From an uncultured Candidatus Rokubacteria bacterium (lineage in GTDB: Bacteria > Methylomirabilota > Methylomirabilia > Rokubacteriales > CSP1-6): a stretch of DNA of 64,000 nucleotides. Made by a program: the position numbers and the translations under genes. Of the stretch, positions 38,375 through 49,114 are shown piece after piece; the stretch's first letter is position 1; every line of letters begins with the position of its first letter. The notes beneath the pieces were generated by a model, which was not told where the DNA came from, did not search any database, and saw only the letters and a list, made by a program, of their open reading frames with translations. The stretch covers positions 64,001 to 128,000 of the forward strand of contig CAVWWD010000006.1 in NCBI GenBank assembly GCA_963758635.1, read 5' to 3'.

Positions 38375-41215
38375 TCACCCCGCGCCGCGGAGCGCGCGCC
38401 ACACGCGCTCGGGGGTCAGCGGCAGCTCGGTGAGGCGCACGCCGGCCAGGCGCGCGAGCGCGTTGGCCACGGCGGGGCTCACGGGAATCAGGCTGCCCTC
38501 GCCCGCGCCCTTGGCCCCGAACGGGCCGGCGCCGTCGCCGTTCTCCACGAAGCGGCATGACATGCGCGGCGGGACGTCGCCGGCGCGCGGCACGCGGTAG
38601 TCGGCGAGGTTGCCGTTCAGGAGCTGTCCGCCCTCGTAGACCATCTCCTCGTAGAGCGTGTGGCCGATACCCTGCATCACCGCGCCCTCGTCCTGGCCCT
38701 CGCACAGGAGCGGGTTGATGCGCCGGCCCACGTCGGCCACCGAGACGTAGTGCTCCACGGTCACCGCGCCCGTCTCGCGGTCCAGGCTCACCTCCGCCGC
38801 GCCCACCGCCATCTCCCAGAACGGCGTGCTCCCGCCGAGCGGCGCGCCGGTGCGGCCGGGGGCGACGATCCCGCGCCCGATCAGCTCGCCGCCGGCCATG
38901 CCGAAGCGATCGCGGAAGAGGTCCGGATACCCGGCGCGCGCGGTCCCGTCGGCCGTGACCACGTGGCCGTCCTCCAGCCGGAGGGCGGCCGCCGCCGCGC
39001 CGAGCCGCGCCGCGCCCAGCCGGAGGAGCTGCTGGCCGACCTCCTCCGCGGCCTCCATCACCGCGCGGCCCGTCATCGTCGTGGAGCGGCTCGACGTGGT
39101 GCTCTGGTCGTACGGCGTGATCGCGGTGTCCGGCGCGGCCACGTGCACGCGGGCGAGCGGCACCGCGAGCACCTCGGCGGCGATCTGCGCCATCACCGTG
39201 CGCGCGCCCTGGCCCATCTCCACCGTGCTCGCGAGGACGGTGACGCTGCCGTCGGCGAAGAGCCGCACGATGGCCTCGGACACCGACGGGGCGATCGAGG
39301 CCTTCATCATCATGGCCACGCCGCGCCCGCGGTCGGCGGCGGCGGCCTGCGTCCAGGCGATGGCGCGGGCGGCGCGCGACAGGCTCTCCTCGAACTTGCC
39401 GTCGATGGGCGTCTCACCCGGGGCGAACTCCTCGCCGTGGGCGAGCAGGTTCTGGCGCCTGAGCTCCACCGGGTCGTGGTCGAGCCGCCGCGCCGCCTCG
39501 TCCACGAGCGACTCCACCGCCCACGCGAGCTGGGGCACGCCGAAGCCGCGGAAGGCGCCGCCCGGCGTCGTGTTCGTGTACACCGCGTTGCCGTGCAGCA
39601 GCACGTGCGGCACCCGGTACGGCCCGGTGACGGTGTACGTGCCCTTCTGGACCACGCGGGGGCCGATGTCGGCGTAGGCGCCCACGTCGAAGTCGGCGAG
39701 GCAGCTCGCCGCCACCATCGAGCCGTCGCGGCGGAAGCCCAGGCGCACGGTCACGCGCGCGTCGCAGCGGCGGACGGTGCGGAACGCGTCGTCCGCGGAC
39801 ACGGCGAGGCGCACCGGCCGCGCGGTGATTCGCGCCGCCGCGCTCACCAGCGGCTCCAGCTTGGCGTAGGCCTTGCCGCCGAAGCCGCCGCCGATGAGCG
39901 GCACGACGATGCGGATCCGGCTCTGGGGCACGTCGAACATCTTCGCCAGCTCGACCCGCACCGAGTACGGGTTCTGCGTGCCCGCCCACACGGTGAGGCC
40001 GCCCTCGTCGTCCCAGGCGGCGATGGCGCAGTGGGGCTCCATCGAGTAGTGCTGCACGCGAGGGAAGCGGTACGTGCCCTCCACGATCACGGCGGCCTCG
40101 TCGAAGCCGGCGGCCCCGCGCCCGCGCTCCCAGTCGAACTGGTGGCAGACGTTCGAGCCCGGGATCGGGCGCAGGCTCGACAGGTCGGCGAAGTGGCCGG
40201 CCAGCGGCGTGCCGGTGTGGACGAGCGGCGCGCCCGGGGCGAGCGCCTCCTCGAGGCCGGTCACGGCGGCGAGCGGCTCCCACTCCACGTCGATGGCCTC
40301 GCGCGCGGCCTCCGCGAGCTCGAGCGTGTCGGCGACGACCGCGGCCACGGGCTCGCCCTCGTAGCGCGCGACGTCCACGGCCAGGATCGGACGGTCGCGG
40401 AACGCGGGGCCGTAGTAGGGATCGCAGAACCCGAGGTCTGCTGCGGTGATGACGGCGCGGACGCCGGGGAGCGCGCGGGCCGCCGCCGAGTCGACGCGCA
40501 CGATGCGCGCGTGGGCGTGGGGCGAGCGGAGCACGGCCATGTGGAGCATGCCGGGCAGCACGAGGTCGCTCACGTAGCGCGCGCGTCCCGTGACCTTGTC
40601 CACGCCGTCGAGCCGGGGCACGGACCGGCCCACGACGCGGAGCGGCTCCACCGAGGCGGGCTCGACCTCATCCTCCGGCGGTGAAGGCCGGCCCCCGCTG
40701 TCGCCGGTTCGGCCATCGCCGGCCCCTTGCGCCCCGCCGGTCCCGCAGGCGAGGACGGCCTCGAGGATCTTCTTGTAGCCCGTGCACCGGCAGAGGCTGC
40801 CGCGCAGCCAGTGCGCCACGCGCTCGCCGGTCGGCGCGGGGTCCTCGTCGAGCAGCGCCTTGGCGCTCAGCAGCATCCCCGCGGTGCAGAACCCGCACTG
40901 GAGCCCGCCGTGATCGATCAGCGCGGACTGGAGCGGATGGAGCGCGCCGGGCGATCCGAGCCCTTCCACGGTGAGGATCTCCCGGCCCGCCGCCTCCACG
41001 GCGAGGTACGTGCACGCGCTCACGGGGTCGCCGTCCACCAGCACGGTGCACGCGCCGCACACCTGGAGGTCGCAGGAGCGCTTGGCGCCCTTGAGGTCGA
41101 GCTGGTCGCGCAGCACGTCCAGCAGCAGCGCGTGCGCGGGCGCCGCAAGCTCCACCGGGCGCCCGTTGACGGTGCAGGCGGTGGTCGCGGCCCCTGGCGC
41201 GTCCCGCTCGCTCAC
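38375..41215 (-). CDS. Xanthine-dehydrogenase-family enzyme, fused 2Fe-2S and molybdopterin subunits
   Basis: C...CGACTV, QCGFC, CRCTGY, then MEPH, GGGFGGK, AFRGFG, EMGQG, GAKGAGE. Confidence 0.92.
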   Translation of the reverse strand: MSERDAPGAATTACTVNGRPVELAAPAHALLLDVLRDQLDLKGAKRSCDLQVCGACTVLVDGDPVSACTYLAVEAAGREILTVEGLGSPGALHPLQSALIDHGGLQCGFCTAGMLLSAKALLDEDPAPTGERVAHWLRGSLCRCTGYKKILEAVLACGTGGAQGAGDGRTGDSGGRPSPPEDEVEPASVEPLRVVGRSVPRLDGVDKVTGRARYVSDLVLPGMLHMAVLRSPHAHARIVRVDSAAARALPGVRAVITAADLGFCDPYYGPAFRDRPILAVDVARYEGEPVAAVVADTLELAEAAREAIDVEWEPLAAVTGLEEALAPGAPLVHTGTPLAGHFADLSSLRPIPGSNVCHQFDWERGRGAAGFDEAAVIVEGTYRFPRVQHYSMEPHCAIAAWDDEGGLTVWAGTQNPYSVRVELAKMFDVPQSRIRIVVPLIGGGFGGKAYAKLEPLVSAAARITARPVRLAVSADDAFRTVRRCDARVTVRLGFRRDGSMVAASCLADFDVGAYADIGPRVVQKGTYTVTGPYRVPHVLLHGNAVYTNTTPGGAFRGFGVPQLAWAVESLVDEAARRLDHDPVELRRQNLLAHGEEFAPGETPIDGKFEESLSRAARAIAWTQAAAADRGRGVAMMMKASIAPSVSEAIVRLFADGSVTVLASTVEMGQGARTVMAQIAAEVLAVPLARVHVAAPDTAITPYDQSTTSSRSTTMTGRAVMEAAEEVGQQLLRLGAARLGAAAAALRLEDGHVVTADGTARAGYPDLFRDRFGMAGGELIGRGIVAPGRTGAPLGGSTPFWEMAVGAAEVSLDRETGAVTVEHYVSVADVGRRINPLLCEGQDEGAVMQGIGHTLYEEMVYEGGQLLNGNLADYRVPRAGDVPPRMSCRFVENGDGAGPFGAKGAGEGSLIPVSPAVANALARLAGVRLTELPLTPERVWRALRGAG

Positions 41216-41243
41216 GAGTGGCCTCCGCTCACGGCCGACCCCG

Positions 41244-42155
41244 TCAGACGACGACCGCGTGAGGGTAGTGGACGCGTGGGCCCTGGCCCTGCGCGCGCGC
41301 GGCGGCCAGCGCGAGGGCGCGCCCGACGAACACCCGCGTCATCGCGCGCTTGTACTCGGCCGACCCGTGGAGGTCGTCGACCGGCCGCACCGGCTCGGCG
41401 GCGAGCGCGCCGAGGTCGGCGGCGCGACGCTCGACCTCGCCGGCGGTCAGGCCGCGGATCGCCGACTCGACGGCGCCGAGGCGCTCCGGCCGCGGGCCCA
41501 CGCAGCCCACCGCCACCCGCGCGTCCTGGATGCGGCCGGCGGCGTCGGGCACGAGCGCCACGCCGACGCCCAGGGTGGGCCGCTCGTGCACGCCGAACTT
41601 CAGGTACGCGCCGGTCGCCCCGGACGGCCAGGGACGCAGGCGCACCGTGGTCAGGATCTCGTCGTCGCCGCGCGCCGTCTCGTAGGGCCCCACCACGAAG
41701 TCGGCGAGCGGCAGCTCGCGGATCGCCGCGCCAGCCTGGAGCCGGACGCGCGCGTCGAAGAGCAGGAACAGCGTGGCGAGGTCGCTGTGCGGATCGGCGA
41801 AGGCCAGGTTGCCGCCCACCGTGCCCACGCTGCGCACGCGGACGTTCGCCACGTGCCGGGCCACGTCCGCCACGAGCGGGCACGCCGCGCGGACCGCCGC
41901 CGACCGCTCGACGTCGCGATGACGGGTGACGGCGCCGATCGCGAGCTCGCCGTCCTCGGCGACGATGGCGGCAAGGTTGGGAATGCGCTTCACGTCGATG
42001 AGCCGCCGCGGCCGCGCGAGGCCCGCCTTCATCAGCAGGAGCAGCTCGGTGCCGCCCGCGTACGGCACCGCCTCGCCGGCGTGCTCGGTGAGGAGACGGC
42101 TCGCCTCCTCGACGCTCGCGGGCCGGTGCAGGACGAACGGGGGCAGCCCGCTCAC
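41244..42155 (-). CDS. FAD-binding subunit of XDH-family enzyme (CoxM-like)
   Basis: YAGGTEL, VRSVGTVGGNL, DDLHGSAEYKR; start GTG 42155. Confidence 0.9.
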   Translation of the reverse strand: MSGLPPFVLHRPASVEEASRLLTEHAGEAVPYAGGTELLLLMKAGLARPRRLIDVKRIPNLAAIVAEDGELAIGAVTRHRDVERSAAVRAACPLVADVARHVANVRVRSVGTVGGNLAFADPHSDLATLFLLFDARVRLQAGAAIRELPLADFVVGPYETARGDDEILTTVRLRPWPSGATGAYLKFGVHERPTLGVGVALVPDAAGRIQDARVAVGCVGPRPERLGAVESAIRGLTAGEVERRAADLGALAAEPVRPVDDLHGSAEYKRAMTRVFVGRALALAAARAQGQGPRVHYPHAVVV

Positions 42156-42598
42156 GCCGTCACCGCGCGGCGCGCGCGGGCCGCGAACTCGTCGATTGCC
42201 TCCTCGCCTTTCCGCTGGATGACGCCGTGCCCGAGCGCGCCGAGCTTGCCCAGCACCTGGCCGTCGGCCTCGATGCGGAGCGCCGCGCCCTCCGGGCCGG
42301 GCGCGCAGTCGAGCGTCACGCGCATCACGATCTCGGCGCCCACCAGGCGATCGCGGCCAGTGGCGCGGAGCACGAGGCGCCGCGGCGCCGCGGCCTCGAC
42401 GATCTCCACGTCCAGCGGCACGTCGAGGCTGATCGGGCCGACGCGCTGCTTCATGCGCGCGGCGTAGCGGCGCTGCGCCTCGACCTCCCGGGCCTCCACG
42501 CAGCCGGGCACGCAGCTCACCACGCGCGGCACGTCCCACAGGAAGGTCCAGACCGCCGCGGGCGATGCGGCCATGGCGACCTCGCGGACGACGCGCAC
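42152..42598 (-). CDS. CoxG/SRPBCC family protein
   Basis: VWTFLWD...V.SCVPG, VGPI, GKLGALG. Confidence 0.85.
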   Translation of the reverse strand: MRVVREVAMAASPAAVWTFLWDVPRVVSCVPGCVEAREVEAQRRYAARMKQRVGPISLDVPLDVEIVEAAAPRRLVLRATGRDRLVGAEIVMRVTLDCAPGPEGAALRIEADGQVLGKLGALGHGVIQRKGEEAIDEFAARARRAVTA

Positions 42599-42679
42599 GT
42601 CATGCGCTCCCGGCCGGGCGCGCGCTCATGCGTCGACATCGGGCTCGAGGTGAGCCGCCGGCTGCCACGGCGGCCGCGC

Positions 42680-43687
42680 TCAGGCGAGGGCTCCGGCGGG
42701 CCGGAGCACCTCGTCGGCGATCATCTGGAGGTAGTCGATCCGCGCACGCGCTTCGCGCGGCAGGCTGTAGATGGTCACGCCGATGCGGTCCAGGCCCATC
42801 TCGGCGCCGCGGCGGATCGTCTCGACGCAGTCCTGCGGCGAGCCGTTGATGGTCCAGTCGTCGAGCGACCGGTCGAAGTCGAGCTGGAGCTCCACCATGC
42901 TCCGCTCCTGCATCTGCCAGGTCCGGTACATGGCGAACGTGCGCTCCAGGTACGCGCGCGCCGCGGCGTGCGCCTCCTCCCGGGAGCGTCCGACGATGAG
43001 GCTCCGCGACGCGCCCACGAAGCCCGGCGTGGCCACGCCCGCGGTGGCGCGGGCGTCCCGGAACACCTGGGCAAGCTTGCCCACGTCCCGCCACGCGACC
43101 TGGGGGCCGAAGAACACGCCGTCGGTGATGCGCGCCGCGCGCTCGGTCGCGCCCATGCTCTGCGCGCCCATCTCGAGCGGCGGATGCGGGCGCTGGTACG
43201 GCGGAAACCCCATGCGCCCCGCCGTGAGCCTGGTGTAGCGTCCCGCGAACGTGACCTCCTCGCCCGTCCAGAGCCGTTTCATCAGCTCGATGGACTCGGT
43301 GAGCTTGGCCACGCGGTCGCTCCGCGCGAGGCCCGCCGCCTCCAGCTCGCGCTCGCGGTAGCCGATGGCCACGCCCACATCGAGGCGGCCGTGGCAGATG
43401 TGGTCGAGCGTGGCCACGCTCTCCGCCGTCTCCACCGCGTTCAGGATGGGGAGCAGCAGCACGGAGGTCTTGAGCCGCATGGCCCCGGTCTCGGGGGCCA
43501 GCCGCGCGAGCATCGGGAACGGCTGCGGCCACACGGTGGGATGCGAGACCCAGTGCTGGCCGATCGACACCCAGCCGTAGCCCATGCGGGAGGCCGCCGC
43601 GACCACCTCGACGGCCTCGTCGATGATGCGCGTGGGCCCACGGTCGGTCGGGCTCCAGAACGGCGTGAGGTGGAAGCCTACCTTCAC
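42680..43687 (-). CDS. LLM-class flavin-dependent oxidoreductase
   Basis: AESVATLDHICHGRLDVGVAIGYR, PYQRPHPPL; start GTG 43687. Confidence 0.88.
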   Translation of the reverse strand: MKVGFHLTPFWSPTDRGPTRIIDEAVEVVAAASRMGYGWVSIGQHWVSHPTVWPQPFPMLARLAPETGAMRLKTSVLLLPILNAVETAESVATLDHICHGRLDVGVAIGYRERELEAAGLARSDRVAKLTESIELMKRLWTGEEVTFAGRYTRLTAGRMGFPPYQRPHPPLEMGAQSMGATERAARITDGVFFGPQVAWRDVGKLAQVFRDARATAGVATPGFVGASRSLIVGRSREEAHAAARAYLERTFAMYRTWQMQERSMVELQLDFDRSLDDWTINGSPQDCVETIRRGAEMGLDRIGVTIYSLPREARARIDYLQMIADEVLRPAGALA

Positions 43688-44496
43688 CGCGCGTCCCGCG
43701 CCGCGTCCATGAGCGGCTTCTGCTGCCCGCCGTCGATCTCGATCATGGAGCCGTTCACGAAGTGCGCGAGCGGGGACGCGAGGTACGCGACGAGGTTCGC
43801 CACCTCCTCGACCTCGGCGATGCGCCCGAGCGGGATGCTCCGCGGGGCGAGCTGGTCGGCATCCTCGTAGGAGAGCTTCATGTCGCGGGCCATCGCGCGG
43901 ACGAGCCCCTCCCAGCGCTCGGTGCGCACGGGACCGGGGTTCACCGCGACGAACGTGATGCCGTGGCGACCGTACTGGCCGGCGAGGGCCTTGGTGAGGT
44001 TCTGCCCGGCGGCGTTCGCCGCGCCGGGCACGATCTCCCAGTACGACTCCTTCACGCCGTCGTTGCCGATGAGGTTCACCACGCGGCCGCCGCCCTGCGC
44101 CCGCATGATGGGCAGCGCCACCTTCAGGCAGCGCACGTAGCCCATGAACTTGAGCTGGAGCCCCTGGATCCACGCGTCCTCCGGGAGGACCTCGAGCACG
44201 CCGCCGGCGGCGGACCCCGCGTTGTTCACGAGGATGTCGACGCGGCCGAGCTCCGCGGCCGCGCCCGTCACGAACCGCTCGGCATCCTCCGTGCGCGTGA
44301 GGTCGGCGGCAATCGCCACGACCTTGCGCCCCGTCTCGGCGCGGATCTCCGCGGCCGCCGCCTCCAGCACGTCGCGGCGACGCGCGCAGATGGCCACGTC
44401 CGCGCCCTCGCGGGCCAGCGCCCGCGCGATGCCCTTGCCGATCCCCGCGCTCCCGCCCGTCACGAGCGCGGCCTTGCCCGTCAGTCCGAGGTCCAT
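43684..44496 (-). CDS. Short-chain dehydrogenase/reductase
   Basis: TGGSAGIG, NNAG, NPGPVRTER, IPLGR, IDGG. Confidence 0.9.
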   Translation of the reverse strand: MDLGLTGKAALVTGGSAGIGKGIARALAREGADVAICARRRDVLEAAAAEIRAETGRKVVAIAADLTRTEDAERFVTGAAAELGRVDILVNNAGSAAGGVLEVLPEDAWIQGLQLKFMGYVRCLKVALPIMRAQGGGRVVNLIGNDGVKESYWEIVPGAANAAGQNLTKALAGQYGRHGITFVAVNPGPVRTERWEGLVRAMARDMKLSYEDADQLAPRSIPLGRIAEVEEVANLVAYLASPLAHFVNGSMIEIDGGQQKPLMDAARDAR

Positions 44497-44692
44497 GCCG
44501 ATCTCCCTGTCGGCCTGGCGCGCGCGATCGCCCGCGGTGGGTCGCGGTCCGCCACGCCGGAGCCGTCGACGGGGTTATAGCACGCCGCCGCGGGTCCCCG
44601 CCCCGAGCCCTGATGACCCTCGCAGAATGCGGGAACCGCCACGGGCCTCTACAGTCCCACTGCTCGGCATTGGTCCGATGCGCGGGGCTCGA

Positions 44693-46255
44693 CTAATTGG
44701 AGATGCTGACGTTCCAGCCCTTCGGGTACGTGAGGTCGGGACGCGTCCCCGCCCTTTCCATGTCCCGCTGGATGGCGCCGAGACGGTCGATCCATTCCTG
44801 CATCACGGCGCGGCCCCGAGGGTCCAGCGCGAGGGACGGGACGCTGGCGGTGAGGAGCATGTTGTACGGCTTCCAGGTCCCGATGATGGTGGCGACGAGG
44901 TCGAACGCGCGCCGGCAGTCCATCGGCGCGCCCGACTCGGGCGCCACCGTGGGGATGATCCAGCCGATCGTGGAGTAGTCCCACACGAGGTTGTTCAGGA
45001 CATCGTGCTCGGCGACCGACAGGTGGAGCAGCGTCGCGCAGAGCCGCGCGAGCCAGTCCCGGGAGAGGCCGTCGGCGGGCCGGCGCACGCCGTTCGGGAG
45101 GAGCCGCTCGAGCTCGTCGGCCCATTCGCCCACCTCGCGGTCCGCGCGCACCGCCGCGTCGCCGTCGTAGTAGACGCGCAGGTACGCGTCGGTGTACGCG
45201 CGCGTGGCCTCCCACACCTGCAGCACGTTGTCGCGGTACGGGTAGTCGAAGGGCGTGGTGGTCGTGCCGCGGCGGGCGAACTGCGCGGGCGGCTCGAAGT
45301 CCCACACGTCGAAGCGAGCCAGGTAGTCGTTGGCCATCCGCGCCAGCACGGCAGCGTCGTGCGAGAAGATCGTGGCCGAGAAGCCCTTCGACCCCGAGAG
45401 CTGGAACTCCGCAACCTCGCGGTTGCCGATCAGCACCGTGTGAAAGGCATGGTGCAGCAGCCGCCGCACCGGGTGGGCCGGCCCCAGCCGGTTGTTCGAC
45501 GCCAGCGCGAACGCGGTCAGCGTCGACAGGTGCGTGGAGAGATTGTGCCGGAACGTGGTCAGGTCCTCGTTGATGCCGGCCAGGAAGGCGGCCCGCGCCC
45601 GGAGGTAGTCGGGCGCGCCCGGACGGGCGACCTGGCCCGCGCCGCGATGGATGGCCATCGTCTCGAGCGCGCGGCCGCGAACGTCCAGGACCGCGGTACC
45701 GCCGGGCGGCATGAGGCCAGGCTGCGCGGGATAGGCGAGCAGCCAGGAGAGGTCGAGGAGGTACTGGTCCGTCGAGGCCGCCCGCTGCGCCTGGACGTTG
45801 TCCCCGGTGGCGCGGCGCAGGTACGAGGCGAAGGGCCCCCGGACGGCGATCTCCGCGACGACGTTGGCGCCCGGGGCGACGAGCGCACGCGGCGCGCAGG
45901 GCGGCCGGGGCCACGCCTTCCGGAAGTAGGCCGGGTAGACCACGTCGAGGAAGGCCGCCTCGTCCTGGGGGACGGGGGGCGTCGTGGCCGGGGCCATGGC
46001 CTCGGCGGTGGCGAACAGCTTGTGCGCGCGCTTCATCCGCTTGAGCCGCGGCGCAGGATCGTCGGACGCCGGGAAGTCCTCGGCGTCGTAGAGCCGGGCG
46101 ATCGGCATATCCGGAAAGGCCGTGGCGTATGGCCGGAAGCGTACCGCGCCCGGCACCGGCGCCTCGAGCGGGTACACCTTCTGGTCGCGGAAGCCGAGCC
46201 AGGTGAAGAAGGCGACGGTCTGCCGGTACATCGAGAAGCGCGTGTCGTCGAGCAT
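44693..46255 (-). CDS. Lipoxygenase-like non-heme iron dioxygenase (compact, no recognisable PLAT domain)
   Basis: H-x4-H (RHNLSTHL), LGPAHPVRRLL, FDYPYRDN, H-x3-N (EHDVLN), C-terminal VSISN; SD GAGGAGG. Confidence 0.8.
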   Translation of the reverse strand: MLDDTRFSMYRQTVAFFTWLGFRDQKVYPLEAPVPGAVRFRPYATAFPDMPIARLYDAEDFPASDDPAPRLKRMKRAHKLFATAEAMAPATTPPVPQDEAAFLDVVYPAYFRKAWPRPPCAPRALVAPGANVVAEIAVRGPFASYLRRATGDNVQAQRAASTDQYLLDLSWLLAYPAQPGLMPPGGTAVLDVRGRALETMAIHRGAGQVARPGAPDYLRARAAFLAGINEDLTTFRHNLSTHLSTLTAFALASNNRLGPAHPVRRLLHHAFHTVLIGNREVAEFQLSGSKGFSATIFSHDAAVLARMANDYLARFDVWDFEPPAQFARRGTTTTPFDYPYRDNVLQVWEATRAYTDAYLRVYYDGDAAVRADREVGEWADELERLLPNGVRRPADGLSRDWLARLCATLLHLSVAEHDVLNNLVWDYSTIGWIIPTVAPESGAPMDCRRAFDLVATIIGTWKPYNMLLTASVPSLALDPRGRAVMQEWIDRLGAIQRDMERAGTRPDLTYPKGWNVSISN

Positions 46256-46268
46256 GCGCCCCTCCTCG

Positions 46269-49114
46269 CTACTTCTCGCGGAAGGCAGGATCGGTCTCGG
46301 CGCCCTTCCGCGGCTTCCACTCGAGCGTGTAGTATTCGCCGCGGTCGCGGCCCCACGGGTCGAACGCGTTGACGACGGAGGCGAGCTCCGGCGCCAGCTC
46401 GGGAACCGTGCGCAGGAGGACGCGCTTGAGCGGCGAGACCTCCATCTCGTGGCCGTTCGGCCGGCCCCGCTCCATCACCGTGCCGTCGGGCCCGTTGTCG
46501 GTGACCCACCGGACGCCCAGGTGGCTGTAGAACTCGGGCCGGAAGCTCGACGTGAAGAACCGGTCGCTGAAGAGGCGCCGCGAGGCGTTGAGGATGAACA
46601 CCTGGAACTGCGTCTCGGAGATGGCGAAGCCGTGGGGCCGCGCGAACTCGGAGAGCCAGCCCACCACCGTGTCGACGTCCTCGACGTTGTCGACCAGGCT
46701 GCCGTCGGGCCGCCCGAGGCAGTCGTTGATCGGCGTGCCGTCCGGGTTCCGCTGGGCGGCCGTGATCACCTTCGAGGCGTCGCACCGATGCTGCCCGTAG
46801 ACCTCGCGGAGGATCCCGACCAGCCGCTCCTGCTCCGCGCGCTCCGGCGTTCCCCGGGCCAGGCGCGGATCGATGAAGTCGTCGAACGAGGTCAGCTGCT
46901 GGAGCCCGTACTGGCGGCGGAACTCGTTGAAGCGCGGGACGCCGCGCTCGCGGTCGCGGATGAGGTCGAGGGCGACGACGTCGATCTTTCCCGTCGCGCT
47001 CTGAAGGCGCGGCAGCTCCAGGCTCTGCAGGAAGTGCGGATGGTTCTGCAGCGTGAGGAGGCCCAGGCGCTGGCGTCCCATGGACAGCGCCCAGCTCGCC
47101 AGCCCCCGCTCCCGCATGGCGCCGGTGGCCCGCCCGCGGAACGTGTCCACCACCGGCACCTTGTGGCGGATCAGGTTGGGGTCGTCGTCCCAGCGGCGCA
47201 GCTCGATGAGGTCGGGCACCATCGTATGCAGCCGGTACACGGTGACGAACTCCTCGGGGAAGTTGAATGGCGAGCCGAAGTGGTTGATGCCGCCGTTGAC
47301 GTGGTCGAGGTTCTCGATGGTCCAGCGGTCGGCCTTCGCCGGGTCGTAGGTCGGCGAAGACGGCGTCCTCCTCGTAGACCCGGCTGCCGAGGCCGAAGAT
47401 CCCGGCCCCGGAGGCGAAGACCGAGTACCACTGGCCGGCCTTCTTGGCGTCGGTGGACGTGCCGAAGTTCTGGACGGTGATCTTCTCCAGAACCGCCTTC
47501 ACCCGGTCCTTGCCCTGGACGAGGCCGTGCCAGTTGGCGTTCATGCCGAGGTAGAGGGGCTCGTCGTAGAGCAGCTGCGGCGTCCACTCCGTCGTGTGGA
47601 TCTTGGCGATCTCCGCCGAGACGACGAGGCGCGCCACCTCGAAGAGCTCGTCCGCCGTGACGTCGCGGTAGCGGATGACGCTCCCGCGGCCGCGCCGGGT
47701 TGCGCAGGCCGGAGTCGGCGTCGGGCGTCGCCGCCGCCTGCGCGCGGAAGGCCTCGACGAACCGGTTGTGCTCGCGCGCGAAGACGGTGTGGTAGAAGCT
47801 CATCCCGATCGACCAGTTGTCGGGGAAGGCGGCCGCCTCCTGGCCCGCCCACTGGGGATTCATCGGGTCCGACGCGTCGAGCACGGGCAGGTAGCCGAGC
47901 CGCTCGCCCGCCCCGGCGCGCTGACCGGCGGGCACCATCAGGAACCTGGCGCGGTCGTCCGGCGCGCGCTTGACGCGGCGGCGAGACGTGTCGTCGTGGC
48001 CGTAGAGCTGCGAGGCATCCCACCACGCGGTCACGTTGTTGCTGGACGTCTTGTACGCGCGGGCGAGGTGGGTCCGGCCGCCGGCGGTGAACGTGGGGGG
48101 CGGCCCGTCCTCGGCGACGGAGGCGCGGTCGATGCGGTCGTCGGGCCGGCAGCCGAGCTGGCCGGCGACGGCCGGCGGACATCCCACCGGCATCATCTCC
48201 GGCGCGTTGGCGCCCTCCCGCAGATGGGAGAACCAGTCGTGGGTCATGAACTGGATCCAGAAGGCGGCGAGCACGTTGAAGAAGGGCGCCTTCTTGTAGT
48301 CGCAGCGCGCGTCGGGCGAGGAGCCGGGCAGGCCGCGGCCGTCGTGGCAGGTGTCGGGTCCGGCCTGGGCGCGCGTGAAGAGCTTCCTGCTGATGACCTG
48401 GGGATCGGGCGCGAGCAGGCTGAGGCGCTCGCCGTGCCGGTTGCGGGCCAGCTCGTCCCGGCCGAGCTCGGGGAACGTCGCCGCGAACTCCACGTTGCGG
48501 GCGAACGGCGTCCCGGAGGATCCCATGCGCGGGTTCTTGATGTCGTTGCAGATGCCGGTCAGCGTGCGGAAGCGGATCAGGTCGCCCTGGCAGCGCTGCT
48601 CGCCGTCTCCGCCGACCGACGCGTAGTCCGGATGGCCGCTCGGCAGGCGCATCTCGCTCCACACCTTCAGCGCGCGGCCGTCCACGCCGGCCCGCCCGCT
48701 CACGTAGTCCTGGTAGCTCCCGCTGTTGTCGAAGAGGTTGAACTTGATCAGCTCGATCCGCTGGTACTCGAGGTCGAGCAGCGCGCCGTCGATGCCCCGC
48801 CCGTTGGGGCCCAGGTGGCCACCGCGCACGCTCCAGCCGGGCACGAGGCTCGCCGTGTCGGCCGTCGCCCAGTAGTTCTGCCAGTCCGTCCACGGGGTGG
48901 CGCGCCACGCGACGGCACGGTCTCCGCCCCGGCAGCGCGCGGTCGCCTCGTGCACCTTGCCGAGGAAGCGCTCCGCGCGATCGGTGGCGATGGGGCGGAG
49001 CCCGCCCGCCACCACGTCCAGGCACGCGGACGCGTCGTCGCGCCCCGTCGTCGCGCAACCAGTGAGCAGCAGGACGAGCGAGCCGGCGAGCAGGTACCGG
49101 GAGACGTGTGACAT
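46269..49114 (-). CDS. Heme fatty-acid alpha-dioxygenase-like lipoprotein (peroxidase-cyclooxygenase superfamily), frameshifts near 47690 and 47350
   Basis: Lipobox LTGC; WIQFMTHDW, TAWWDASQLYG, AKIHTTEWT, EEFVTVYRLH, RDRERGVPRFNEFRR, GFAISETQF..FILNASRRL..DRFFT. Confidence 0.85.

Follow-up and report, generated by a model that had tools for sequence, protein, structure and literature searches.

A 64,000-nucleotide stretch of DNA (the window) from an uncultured Candidatus Rokubacteria bacterium of soil (phylum Methylomirabilota) carries two adjacent genes, termed gene A and gene B, for which a first-pass annotation proposed an alpha-dioxygenase and a lipoxygenase forming a dedicated operon. 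The locus raises the question of whether these family assignments hold and whether the two enzymes act together on fatty acids. Bacterial alpha-dioxygenases are described mainly as flavour-aldehyde biocatalysts, and bacterial lipoxygenases as rare and of little known role (PMC8720084, PMC6612559). No description of this alpha-dioxygenase–lipoxygenase pair was found in the literature searched.

Table 1. Features of the two-gene locus (positions in the window)
Feature	Position	Strand	Evidence
Gene A, alpha-dioxygenase-like haem protein of the long lipoprotein subfamily; start ATG 49114, stop TAG 46269	46269..49114	-	PF03098, PDB matches, tiling on P0405
Predicted lipoprotein signal peptide, lipobox LLTG-C20	49055..49114	-	Motif conserved in long homologues
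Frameshift 1 of gene A, one extra base in the assembly	47678..47684		Contig comparison
AKIHTTEWT, equivalents of His311, Trp315, Thr316	47581..47607	-	Alignment and cited residue roles
Frameshift 2 of gene A, one extra base at 47353	47345..47355		Contig comparison
EEFVTVYRLH, equivalents of rice Phe375, catalytic Tyr379, proximal His382	47226..47255	-	Alignment and residue roles given in PMC8720084
GFAISETQFQVFILNASRR, equivalents of Phe549, Phe552, Ala556, Arg559	46575..46631	-	Alignment and cited residue roles
13-bp spacer between the genes with Shine-Dalgarno GAGGAGG	46256..46268	-	Sequence; contigs of X1, X4, X5 bridge the spacer
Gene B, 520-aa single-domain lipoxygenase of a divergent clade; start ATG 46255, stop TAA 44693	44693..46255	-	PF00305, fold, conservation

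Gene A encodes an alpha-dioxygenase-type haem protein

Gene A is split over three frames, and the pieces tile the intact 947-aa homologue P0405 at 89, 89 and 93% identity. Intact homologues of this length are known at 86-90% identity, in agreement with the earlier estimate of ~950 aa once two indels are repaired. Near-identical contigs from sequencing runs of four studies (X1, X4, X5 and X13) were compared at both positions, with runs having small word shares left out. At frameshift 1 the contigs of X1, X5 and X13 have one base fewer and X4 gives no cover (3/4), and at frameshift 2 the extra base is missing from the contigs of all four runs (4/4). Both indels, which had been flagged for checking in reads, look like assembly errors. 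Contigs of the RNA run X13 overlap parts of genes A and B, contig cover being no measure of transcription.

All three pieces match PF03098 in a profile search, the short middle piece with E 0.002 in one search and above the cut-off in another. The best PDB matches of P0122, a gene A homologue, are the alpha-dioxygenases of rice and Arabidopsis (E 2e-55 to 5e-51), which make up the top three of five matches, with the next at E 3e-6. The whole motif series named in the first-pass annotation is found in the window, with WIQFMTHDW at 48259-48233, WWDASQLYG at 48025-47999, RDRERGVPRFNEFRR at 46958-46914 and GFAISET at 46631 in addition to those in Table 1. Motifs and alignments place Tyr379 with Phe375 and Phe552, the proximal His382 and the distal His157 all in gene A, and the carboxylate clamp of His311, Thr316 and Arg559 lies within AKIHTTEWT and ASRR. 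The roles given for His311, Trp315 and Thr316 in PMC8720084 are carboxylate binding and positioning of the alpha-carbon. Gene A retains the full set of catalytic and substrate-binding residues given for alpha-dioxygenases. Across 75 aligned dioxygenases, including those fused to a lipoxygenase, His311, Tyr379, His382 and Arg559 are kept in all 75 and Thr316 in 74, so the haem partner stays an oxygenase.

Judged by its sequence, gene A encodes an alpha-dioxygenase-type haem protein, as first proposed. The product appears not to be a cyclooxygenase-like 10S-dioxygenase, since the alpha-dioxygenase clamp is present and no cyclooxygenase occurs among the PDB matches of P0122 (E up to 0.001). A search of NCBIfam gave no family for the protein of either gene. 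Loss of the distal His (11/45 linked compared with 0/19 unlinked dioxygenases at first count) was considered as a mark of linkage to a lipoxygenase and rejected, as 5 of 24 further unlinked enzymes also have Arg.

A motif test for a lipobox following a hydrophobic stretch identifies LLTG-C20 (49072-49055) near the start of gene A. Cys20 is present in all 115 long homologues and a lipobox-like motif in 110, with ten further cysteines kept in 114-115 of the 115; the predicted product in this host is an envelope lipoprotein with disulphide bonds. The exported, membrane-anchored form suggested earlier stands for gene A but is peculiar to its own subfamily, not a general trait; most partners of the gene B-type lipoxygenase are shorter alpha-dioxygenases lacking a lipobox.

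Gene B encodes a small lipoxygenase

The gene B protein matches PF00305 (E 7e-13), and its AF2 model (pLDDT 92.9) finds lipoxygenases exclusively in Foldseek and VIA-align (Z 26-31.6), bearing out the proposed family and fold (best Z about 31). The iron ligands follow the predicted spacing, H237-x4-H242 and H417-x3-N421, and are conserved in 118 close homologues (H237 118/118, H242 117/118, H417 118/118, N421 117/118). The SIS-type C-terminus proposed with them needs correcting. The protein ends NVSISN with Asn520 as its last residue, a terminal Asn being found in 109/118 close homologues, whereas the last residue of usual lipoxygenases is Ile. Residue 520 aligns with the final residue of solved lipoxygenases, whose terminal carboxylate serves as the fifth iron ligand, residues 518-520 having pLDDT <50. 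Further differences in the iron site are Thr233, which replaces the second-sphere Gln/Glu in 115/118, and Asn238 beside the first His; in a sister lipoxygenase subfamily Gly takes the place of the Asn ligand.

The arched-helix residues look ordinary, with Ala/Gly/Ser at position 282 in 117/118 and Leu286 in 98/118, an assignment that rests on alignments and on a one-residue insertion placed according to CspLOX2. A gap-free alignment with PA-LOX had placed Val at the stereo site and Gln where the clamp Leu is expected, and was rejected in favor of Ala282 and Leu286 on the CspLOX2 alignment and conservation. No signal peptide is apparent by eye, and the product is predicted to be cytoplasmic in the host, on the opposite side of the inner membrane from the gene A product. 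Gene B encodes a lipoxygenase-fold iron protein that forms a separate clade in the tree.

Linkage and fusion of the two genes

The genes are co-oriented on the minus strand and separated by 13 bp with a strong Shine-Dalgarno sequence, as had been noted at first. Searches for a sigma-70 promoter and a terminator gave no match, and a repeat downstream has no Rfam match. Across genomes, an alpha-dioxygenase gene lies beside a gene B-type lipoxygenase in 22/27 loci, 21 of them within 600 bp, and among metagenome loci whose upstream flank reaches 800 bp or more, 24/26 have a linked dioxygenase. By comparison, such a dioxygenase occurs anywhere in the genome in 14/400 sampled Actinomycetota. Within the host phylum all eight lipoxygenases of the gene B clade lie within 12.5 kb of an alpha-dioxygenase, six being adjacent. 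The linked dioxygenases fall in at least three deep clades of the tree, and the pairing is found with both lipoxygenase subfamilies, which are about 28% identical to each other. The pairing is no accident, and the conserved association proposed for these genes is strengthened by the fusions described below. The term operon is too narrow, since 16 of the 22 linked genome loci are divergently transcribed. The remaining five of the 27 show no dioxygenase in the available flank; the closest lipoxygenase locus with a long flank in the set compared (L028, 74% identical) has none there. The link is one-way, as only 7/22 long dioxygenases of the host phylum have the lipoxygenase and 15/22 do not. Cultured carriers are Pseudonocardia charpentierae, Nocardioides agariphilus and Mumia xiangluensis.

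Six fusion proteins from separate 50%-identity clusters join a dioxygenase and a lipoxygenase, the dioxygenase being N-terminal in all, and one of them (P0266) was recovered full-length in JGI, ENA and Logan. In all six fusions, as in the window, the haem partner belongs to PF03098 and not to a catalase family. Two candidate fusions within the subfamily present in the window (P0241 and P0019) were rejected as proof, each being a single sequence and an 84% identical relative of P0019 (L032) being split.

A patatin lipase joins the pair in 9/27 genome loci. In the host genome a TIGR03607/DUF3376-type patatin was not found by a search whose control matched nowhere either; the genome has four further patatins and two desaturase-family genes at other sites, and one query for a catalase-like gene gave no match. 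Other partners of the lipoxygenase clade are also haem enzymes, a P450 together with a patatin (L002) and a fused DyP (P0284). The same long dioxygenase of a sister family within the host order is instead flanked by a catalase-like gene and a DyP. Dioxygenases lacking a lipoxygenase often adjoin flavin oxidases of the GMC or ALO type, which could supply H2O2 to lone dioxygenases. Such genes occur in none of the lipoxygenase-bearing loci, nor beside 13 unlinked actinobacterial dioxygenases, which have mixed neighbours.

A proposed route and its alternatives

Recurrent linkage and occasional fusion point to a likely unstudied two-step fatty-acid oxidation route, and genes A and B likely work as one unit with the lipoxygenase acting first. 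Our preferred reading, with a probability of roughly 0.45, is that the lipoxygenase hydroperoxide charges the dioxygenase haem and the dioxygenase then shortens fatty acids to aldehydes. From the family identities, retained catalytic residues, linkage and fusions we infer the following steps. A lipase, the linked patatin in many hosts and an unlinked one in this genome, would free fatty acids, some of them probably derived from soil lipids of plants or fungi. The lipoxygenase would turn a polyunsaturated acid into a hydroperoxide, of S configuration should Ala282 set the stereochemistry, and this hydroperoxide would oxidise the dioxygenase haem, itself being reduced, to give the catalytic tyrosyl radical. 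The dioxygenase would then introduce O2 at the C2 position of a fatty acid, possibly also of the lipoxygenase product, and the resulting 2-hydroperoxides would decay to one-carbon-shorter aldehydes. With an envelope dioxygenase and a cytoplasmic lipoxygenase, the intermediate would have to diffuse across the membrane instead of being passed on within a complex. Formation of the tyrosyl radical is described as needing a peroxide (PMC9305512, PMC13049297). The haem-enzyme nature of the alternative lipoxygenase partners, and the flavin oxidases often found beside dioxygenases that lack a lipoxygenase, also speak for this reading.

Several points count against the lipoxygenase-first reading, namely the many long host-phylum dioxygenases lacking a lipoxygenase, the predicted opposite membrane sides, the atypical lipoxygenase iron site, the lack of a known polyunsaturated substrate in the hosts, the loci (L028 included) whose available flank shows no dioxygenase, and the mixed neighbours, free of GMC- and ALO-type oxidases, of the 13 unlinked actinobacterial dioxygenases. 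Inserts in plant alpha-dioxygenases restrict haem access for large peroxides. According to a review the initiator is H2O2 and not a lipid hydroperoxide, and cyanobacterial CalDOX is reported to be active alone in E. coli (PMC8720084). It is rather unlikely, if well within reach, that the two are parallel co-regulated enzymes with no chemical hand-over, which jointly detoxify or start the breakdown of lipase-released free fatty acids, the dioxygenase shortening saturated and mono-unsaturated acids and the lipoxygenase oxidising polyunsaturated ones. The frequent divergent arrangement fits co-regulation, the patatin would supply a shared substrate pool, each enzyme also occurs alone and the predicted compartments differ in this genome; against this, an intermediate passed between the enzymes gives a simpler account of repeated fusion and of the replacement of the partner by a P450 or DyP.

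The reverse order, in which a lipoxygenase-fold protein processes the dioxygenase 2-hydroperoxide by reduction, isomerisation or cleavage, or is merely primed by it, is unlikely. The polar, non-canonical iron site would suit this order, as would the N-terminal dioxygenase of the fusions, arranged as in the fungal DOX-P450 proteins described in PMC13049297, and the parallel with other haem dioxygenases, whose partners are catalase-like proteins or P450s; a catalase-like gene and DyP flank the same long dioxygenase in the sister family. The ordinary arched helix argues the other way, the DyP fusion and P450 neighbour place the lipoxygenase on the producing side, and 2-hydroperoxides are described as decaying by themselves. 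It is highly improbable that gene A is degenerating into a pseudogene in this genome or that the genes adjoin by chance. The two frameshifts and the dioxygenase-free L028 locus would fit this explanation, which is already largely refuted by the contigs of four studies, the intact homologues and linkage far above background.

Beyond the lipoxygenase-first reading, a bolder proposal, tentative and somewhat doubtful, is an undescribed oxylipin pathway, widespread among bacteria, whose two enzymes, separate or fused, prime each other with their hydroperoxides and act serially on one fatty acid. If so, doubly oxygenated, one-carbon-shortened aldehydes would serve soil bacteria as signals or weapons, the lipoxygenase iron site would have been rebuilt and the fused proteins would represent a new type of enzyme combining two dioxygenases. 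The pair gives bacterial alpha-dioxygenases and lipoxygenases a natural context. It makes testable which peroxide switches on alpha-dioxygenase in cells and what lipoxygenases do in bacteria that probably make few polyunsaturated acids, and the natural fusions and cultured carriers make such testing easy. The iron chemistry known for lipoxygenases would be broadened by a member that ends in Asn and by a sister group in which Gly replaces the Asn ligand, and a self-priming fusion could serve aldehyde biocatalysis.

Comparison with known systems

Gene A shares all listed catalytic, haem-ligand and carboxylate-binding residues with the alpha-dioxygenases of rice (PDB codes 4KVJ/4KVK) and Arabidopsis (PDB code 4HHR) and with CalDOX/LepDOX, the bacterial enzymes already characterised in cyanobacteria (PMC8720084). 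It differs from these in its lipoxygenase neighbour, in about 360 additional residues and in carrying a lipobox along with ten extra cysteines that are conserved. A Calothrix PCC 6303 protein (locus L147), encoded close to genes for a GMC oxidoreductase and a patatin, matches 16/16 residue numbers given for CalDOX; its identity is 52% with the dioxygenase portion of P0266 and 29% with the long type. The alpha-dioxygenase survey in PMC8720084 dropped sequences >1000 aa, so fusions could not be seen there.

Gene B shares the fold of the canonical lipoxygenases (Pseudomonas PA-LOX, PDB code 4G32; Cyanothece CspLOX2, PDB code 5MED; coral 8R-LOX) with an rmsd of about 3 Å over about 460 residues, together with the three His and the Asn ligands and a last residue aligned to the terminal ligand. 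It differs in that it is only 14-21% identical to them and 520 aa long, ends in Asn, has Thr where they carry a second-sphere Gln/Glu and Asn next to the first His, and forms a separate clade.

The coral and cyanobacterial fusions of catalase-related allene oxide synthase and lipoxygenase (PDB code 3DY5) likewise join an N-terminal haem enzyme to a C-terminal lipoxygenase, and a similar flow of hydroperoxide from lipoxygenase to haem is proposed here, whereas the haem domain in the present pair belongs to the peroxidase-cyclooxygenase superfamily and keeps its own oxygenase site. The Nostoc 10S-dioxygenase with its catalase-related lyase and the fungal DOX-P450 proteins, as described in PMC13049297, likewise combine a tyrosyl-radical haem dioxygenase with a second fatty-acid enzyme. 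Those enzymes are cyclooxygenase-like, oxygenate C8-C10 and have a partner that consumes the hydroperoxide, whereas the partner in the present pair comes from a second dioxygenase family.

Results

The two co-oriented genes, gene A (an alpha-dioxygenase-type haem protein) and gene B (a lipoxygenase), are both found where the first-pass annotation had placed them, with the strong Shine-Dalgarno element ahead of the second. Near relatives of the two proteins carry the name Candidatus Rokuibacteriota (P0098 and P0404), and the host therefore probably belongs there. The three pieces of gene A tile an intact 947-aa homologue (P0405) with 89-93% identity, and the gene span less two bases is exactly 947 codons. 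The host assembly (6.17 Mb, 12 contigs) was compared with contigs from 4 of the 23 listed sequencing runs (X1, X4, X5, and X13, from four studies). In these runs, which represent near-identical strains of unproven identity with the source strain, there is one base fewer at 47353 in all four and one base fewer at 47678-47684 in the three with cover there (X1, X5, and X13; X4 lacks it). By far the most probable explanation of the frameshifts is an error in the assembly, and the earlier treatment of the indels as repairable is supported. The junction of the two genes is bridged by contigs of X1, X4, and X5.

Features of the pair and of related loci (L, locus; other positions are those of the window)
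Feature	Position	Strand	Remarks
Gene A	49114-46269	minus	three reading frames
Spacer gene A/gene B		minus	13 bp, contains GAGGAGG
Gene B	46255-44693	minus	single 520-aa frame
~80-bp repeat	44613-44690		directly after lipoxygenase stop codon; 173 blastn matches in genome
Downstream genes	38375-44496	minus	short-chain dehydrogenase, luciferase-like monooxygenase, CoxG; apparent xanthine-dehydrogenase-type set, 946-aa 2Fe-2S/molybdopterin fusion (read by eye)
Three-gene run	L040:1030-6064		sister-type lipoxygenase, dioxygenase, -ISN lipoxygenase
Lipoxygenase and neighbours	L002:8001-14319		then P450 with two cNMP-binding domains in the same chain, and NTE-type patatin that also has cNMP domains
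CalDOX-matching gene	L147:5992-13740		Calothrix sp. PCC 6303 plasmid; near GMC oxidoreductase and patatin

The downstream genes are not conserved beside the pair at other loci. The repeat is REP- or MITE-like with no Rfam match; some copies are tandem, they are often flanked by CTAG/CTAA-like ends, and depth over the repeat is very high in all four runs X1, X4, X5, and X13.

A profile search places gene A in PF03098, and the best solved relatives of its homologue P0122 are the rice and Arabidopsis alpha-dioxygenases. All eight key residues named in PMC8720084 (His157, His311, Thr316, Phe375, Tyr379, His382, Phe552, and Arg559, rice numbering) are found in gene A, in agreement with its original assignment. 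Across 75 aligned dioxygenases, His311, Tyr379, His382, and Arg559 are invariant and His157 is kept in 64. A Calothrix PCC 6303 plasmid protein is taken as the characterised CalDOX because 16 of 16 published residue numbers agree. Its identity is 29% with the long type represented by gene A, 39-55% with the short partners, and 52% with the fused dioxygenase domain of P0266. The lipobox noted earlier recurs in the long type, with Cys20 following it in 115/115 homologues together with ten more near-invariant cysteines, a pattern that fits a predicted exported, disulphide-bonded lipoprotein.

Gene B matches PF00305 (E 7e-13), and its AF2 model (pLDDT 92.9) returns only lipoxygenases among the structural matches listed (Z 26-31.6, identity 14-21%), so that the proposed lipoxygenase identity is supported by both the family match and the predicted fold. 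Residue 520 aligns structurally with the terminal ligand of solved lipoxygenases. Among 118 close homologues (120 listed minus two shorter than 440 aa), the four side-chain iron ligands are kept in 117-118; the ligand spacing seen earlier stands, and the SIS-type C terminus is corrected in that gene B ends in NVSISN. The last residue is Asn in 109 of the 118. In 115, Thr occupies the second-sphere Gln/Glu position of lipoxygenases. Alignment with CspLOX2 places Ala282 at the stereo determinant and Leu286 at the clamp Leu. A sister subfamily, ~28% identical to the -ISN type of gene B, ends in -INA with Gly replacing the Asn ligand. Both belong to a broader clade that is separate from the small number of canonical -I/-V sequences included in the tree (FastTree, midpoint root). 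A wide set of divergent lipoxygenases (P0255-P0391) has the non-canonical ends -SS, -ST, -NA, and -NS; in many of them a signal peptide is apparent and Gly stands in place of the Asn ligand.

An alpha-dioxygenase gene lies upstream of the lipoxygenase at 22/27 genome loci (21 within 600 bp; 16 divergent, 6 co-oriented), 26 of these 27 genomes being Actinomycetota, whose kinship inflates the count. By comparison, a strong dioxygenase match occurs anywhere in 14 of 400 sampled Actinomycetota genomes (12/398 without the unpublished G675 and G891), and the lipoxygenase is absent from all 400. Metagenome loci, several from the same species, carry the dioxygenase in 26/44 cases, and in 24/26 where at least 800 bp upstream is present. 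The lipoxygenase profile is matched in 10/251 genomes of the host phylum, with eight strong lipoxygenases all within 12.5 kb of a dioxygenase (six adjacent) and two weak matches outside the clade and unlinked. The partners are drawn from at least three well-supported clades, and the link was therefore formed or kept across deep divergence. The combination of long dioxygenase and -ISN lipoxygenase also occurs in the compared runs and probably in two relatives, P0392/P0405 (92,950) and P0006/P0156 (5,183), judged solely by equal-sized contigs; other host-family genomes pair the same long dioxygenase with an -INA lipoxygenase. The alpha-dioxygenase-lipoxygenase pair is real and conserved. The idea of a dedicated pair is supported from the lipoxygenase side (22/27); from the dioxygenase side the link is optional (7/22 long dioxygenases in the host phylum).

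Among 25 long or unusual matches taken from the 150 representatives listed, six proteins have PF03098 followed by PF00305 (P0266, P0296, P0298, P0307, P0315, and P0333), four with a long hydrophobic linker, and P0352 is a partial seventh. The fusions are mutually related and may derive from two or three events; P0266 is present at full length in three sources. In P0284 a DyP peroxidase is joined to a lipoxygenase of the -INA type. Gly/Ala-rich hydrophobic linkers of ~320-590 aa, probably multi-pass membrane segments, precede the lipoxygenase domain in P0296, P0298, P0313, P0315, and P0333.

A TIGR03607 patatin occurs at 9/27 genome loci and not in the window. In the sister family within the host order, the long dioxygenase lies beside GMC oxidoreductase, DyP-like, catalase-like, and di-haem genes, the catalase-like call being an Atlas lead in which 11-17% of the members of the cluster carry the catalase family. 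The conserved cluster (L127-L134; G230, G232, G233, G236, G237, G238, G242, and G243) comprises these genes, the di-haem one cytochrome c peroxidase-like, an M48 peptidase, and two proteins of 143 and 433 aa without assigned family. Short alpha-dioxygenases, some of them extended by ~300 aa at the N terminus, often adjoin ALO-type FAD oxidases (L138-L141, L144, and L150), of which one is a tandem duplicate. None of the GMC, DyP-like, catalase-like, di-haem, or ALO-type genes was found in lipoxygenase-bearing loci, and unlinked actinobacterial dioxygenases have no uniform neighbour, only mixed genes, in 1.5-kb flanks.

Discussion

The tyrosyl radical of haem dioxygenases is formed by peroxide oxidation of the haem, according to PMC9305512 and PMC13049297. 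This requirement favors a tentative order (probability about 0.45) in which the lipoxygenase would act first, its hydroperoxide charging the dioxygenase haem, and the dioxygenase would then shorten fatty acids, perhaps also the lipoxygenase product, to aldehydes. The other partners of the lipoxygenase are haem enzymes and unlinked dioxygenases are often near a possible H2O2 source, both of which support the lipoxygenase acting first. Against it, a review names H2O2 as the initiator, CalDOX works alone in Escherichia coli (PMC8720084), and the two enzymes are predicted in different compartments in this genome.

Parallel action of the two enzymes is somewhat unlikely and the reverse order, dioxygenase before lipoxygenase, is doubtful. 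That gene A is a pseudogene, or the two genes chance neighbors, is highly improbable: the two frameshifts in the assembly would suit it, and the shorter reading in the compared runs and the recurrent linkage argue against it.

Bacterial alpha-dioxygenases have been reported in five phyla, with sequences >1000 aa discarded (PMC8720084); the main text of that study lacks the word lipoxygenase, and its supplements may name further bacterial members. No paper describing the pair or fusion was found among titles and abstract starts, most subscription papers being outside reach. The pair is a variant among known two-enzyme oxylipin systems, apparently undescribed as such, and differs from the known haem-enzyme/lipoxygenase fusions (3DY5), in which the haem part is a catalase-like domain.
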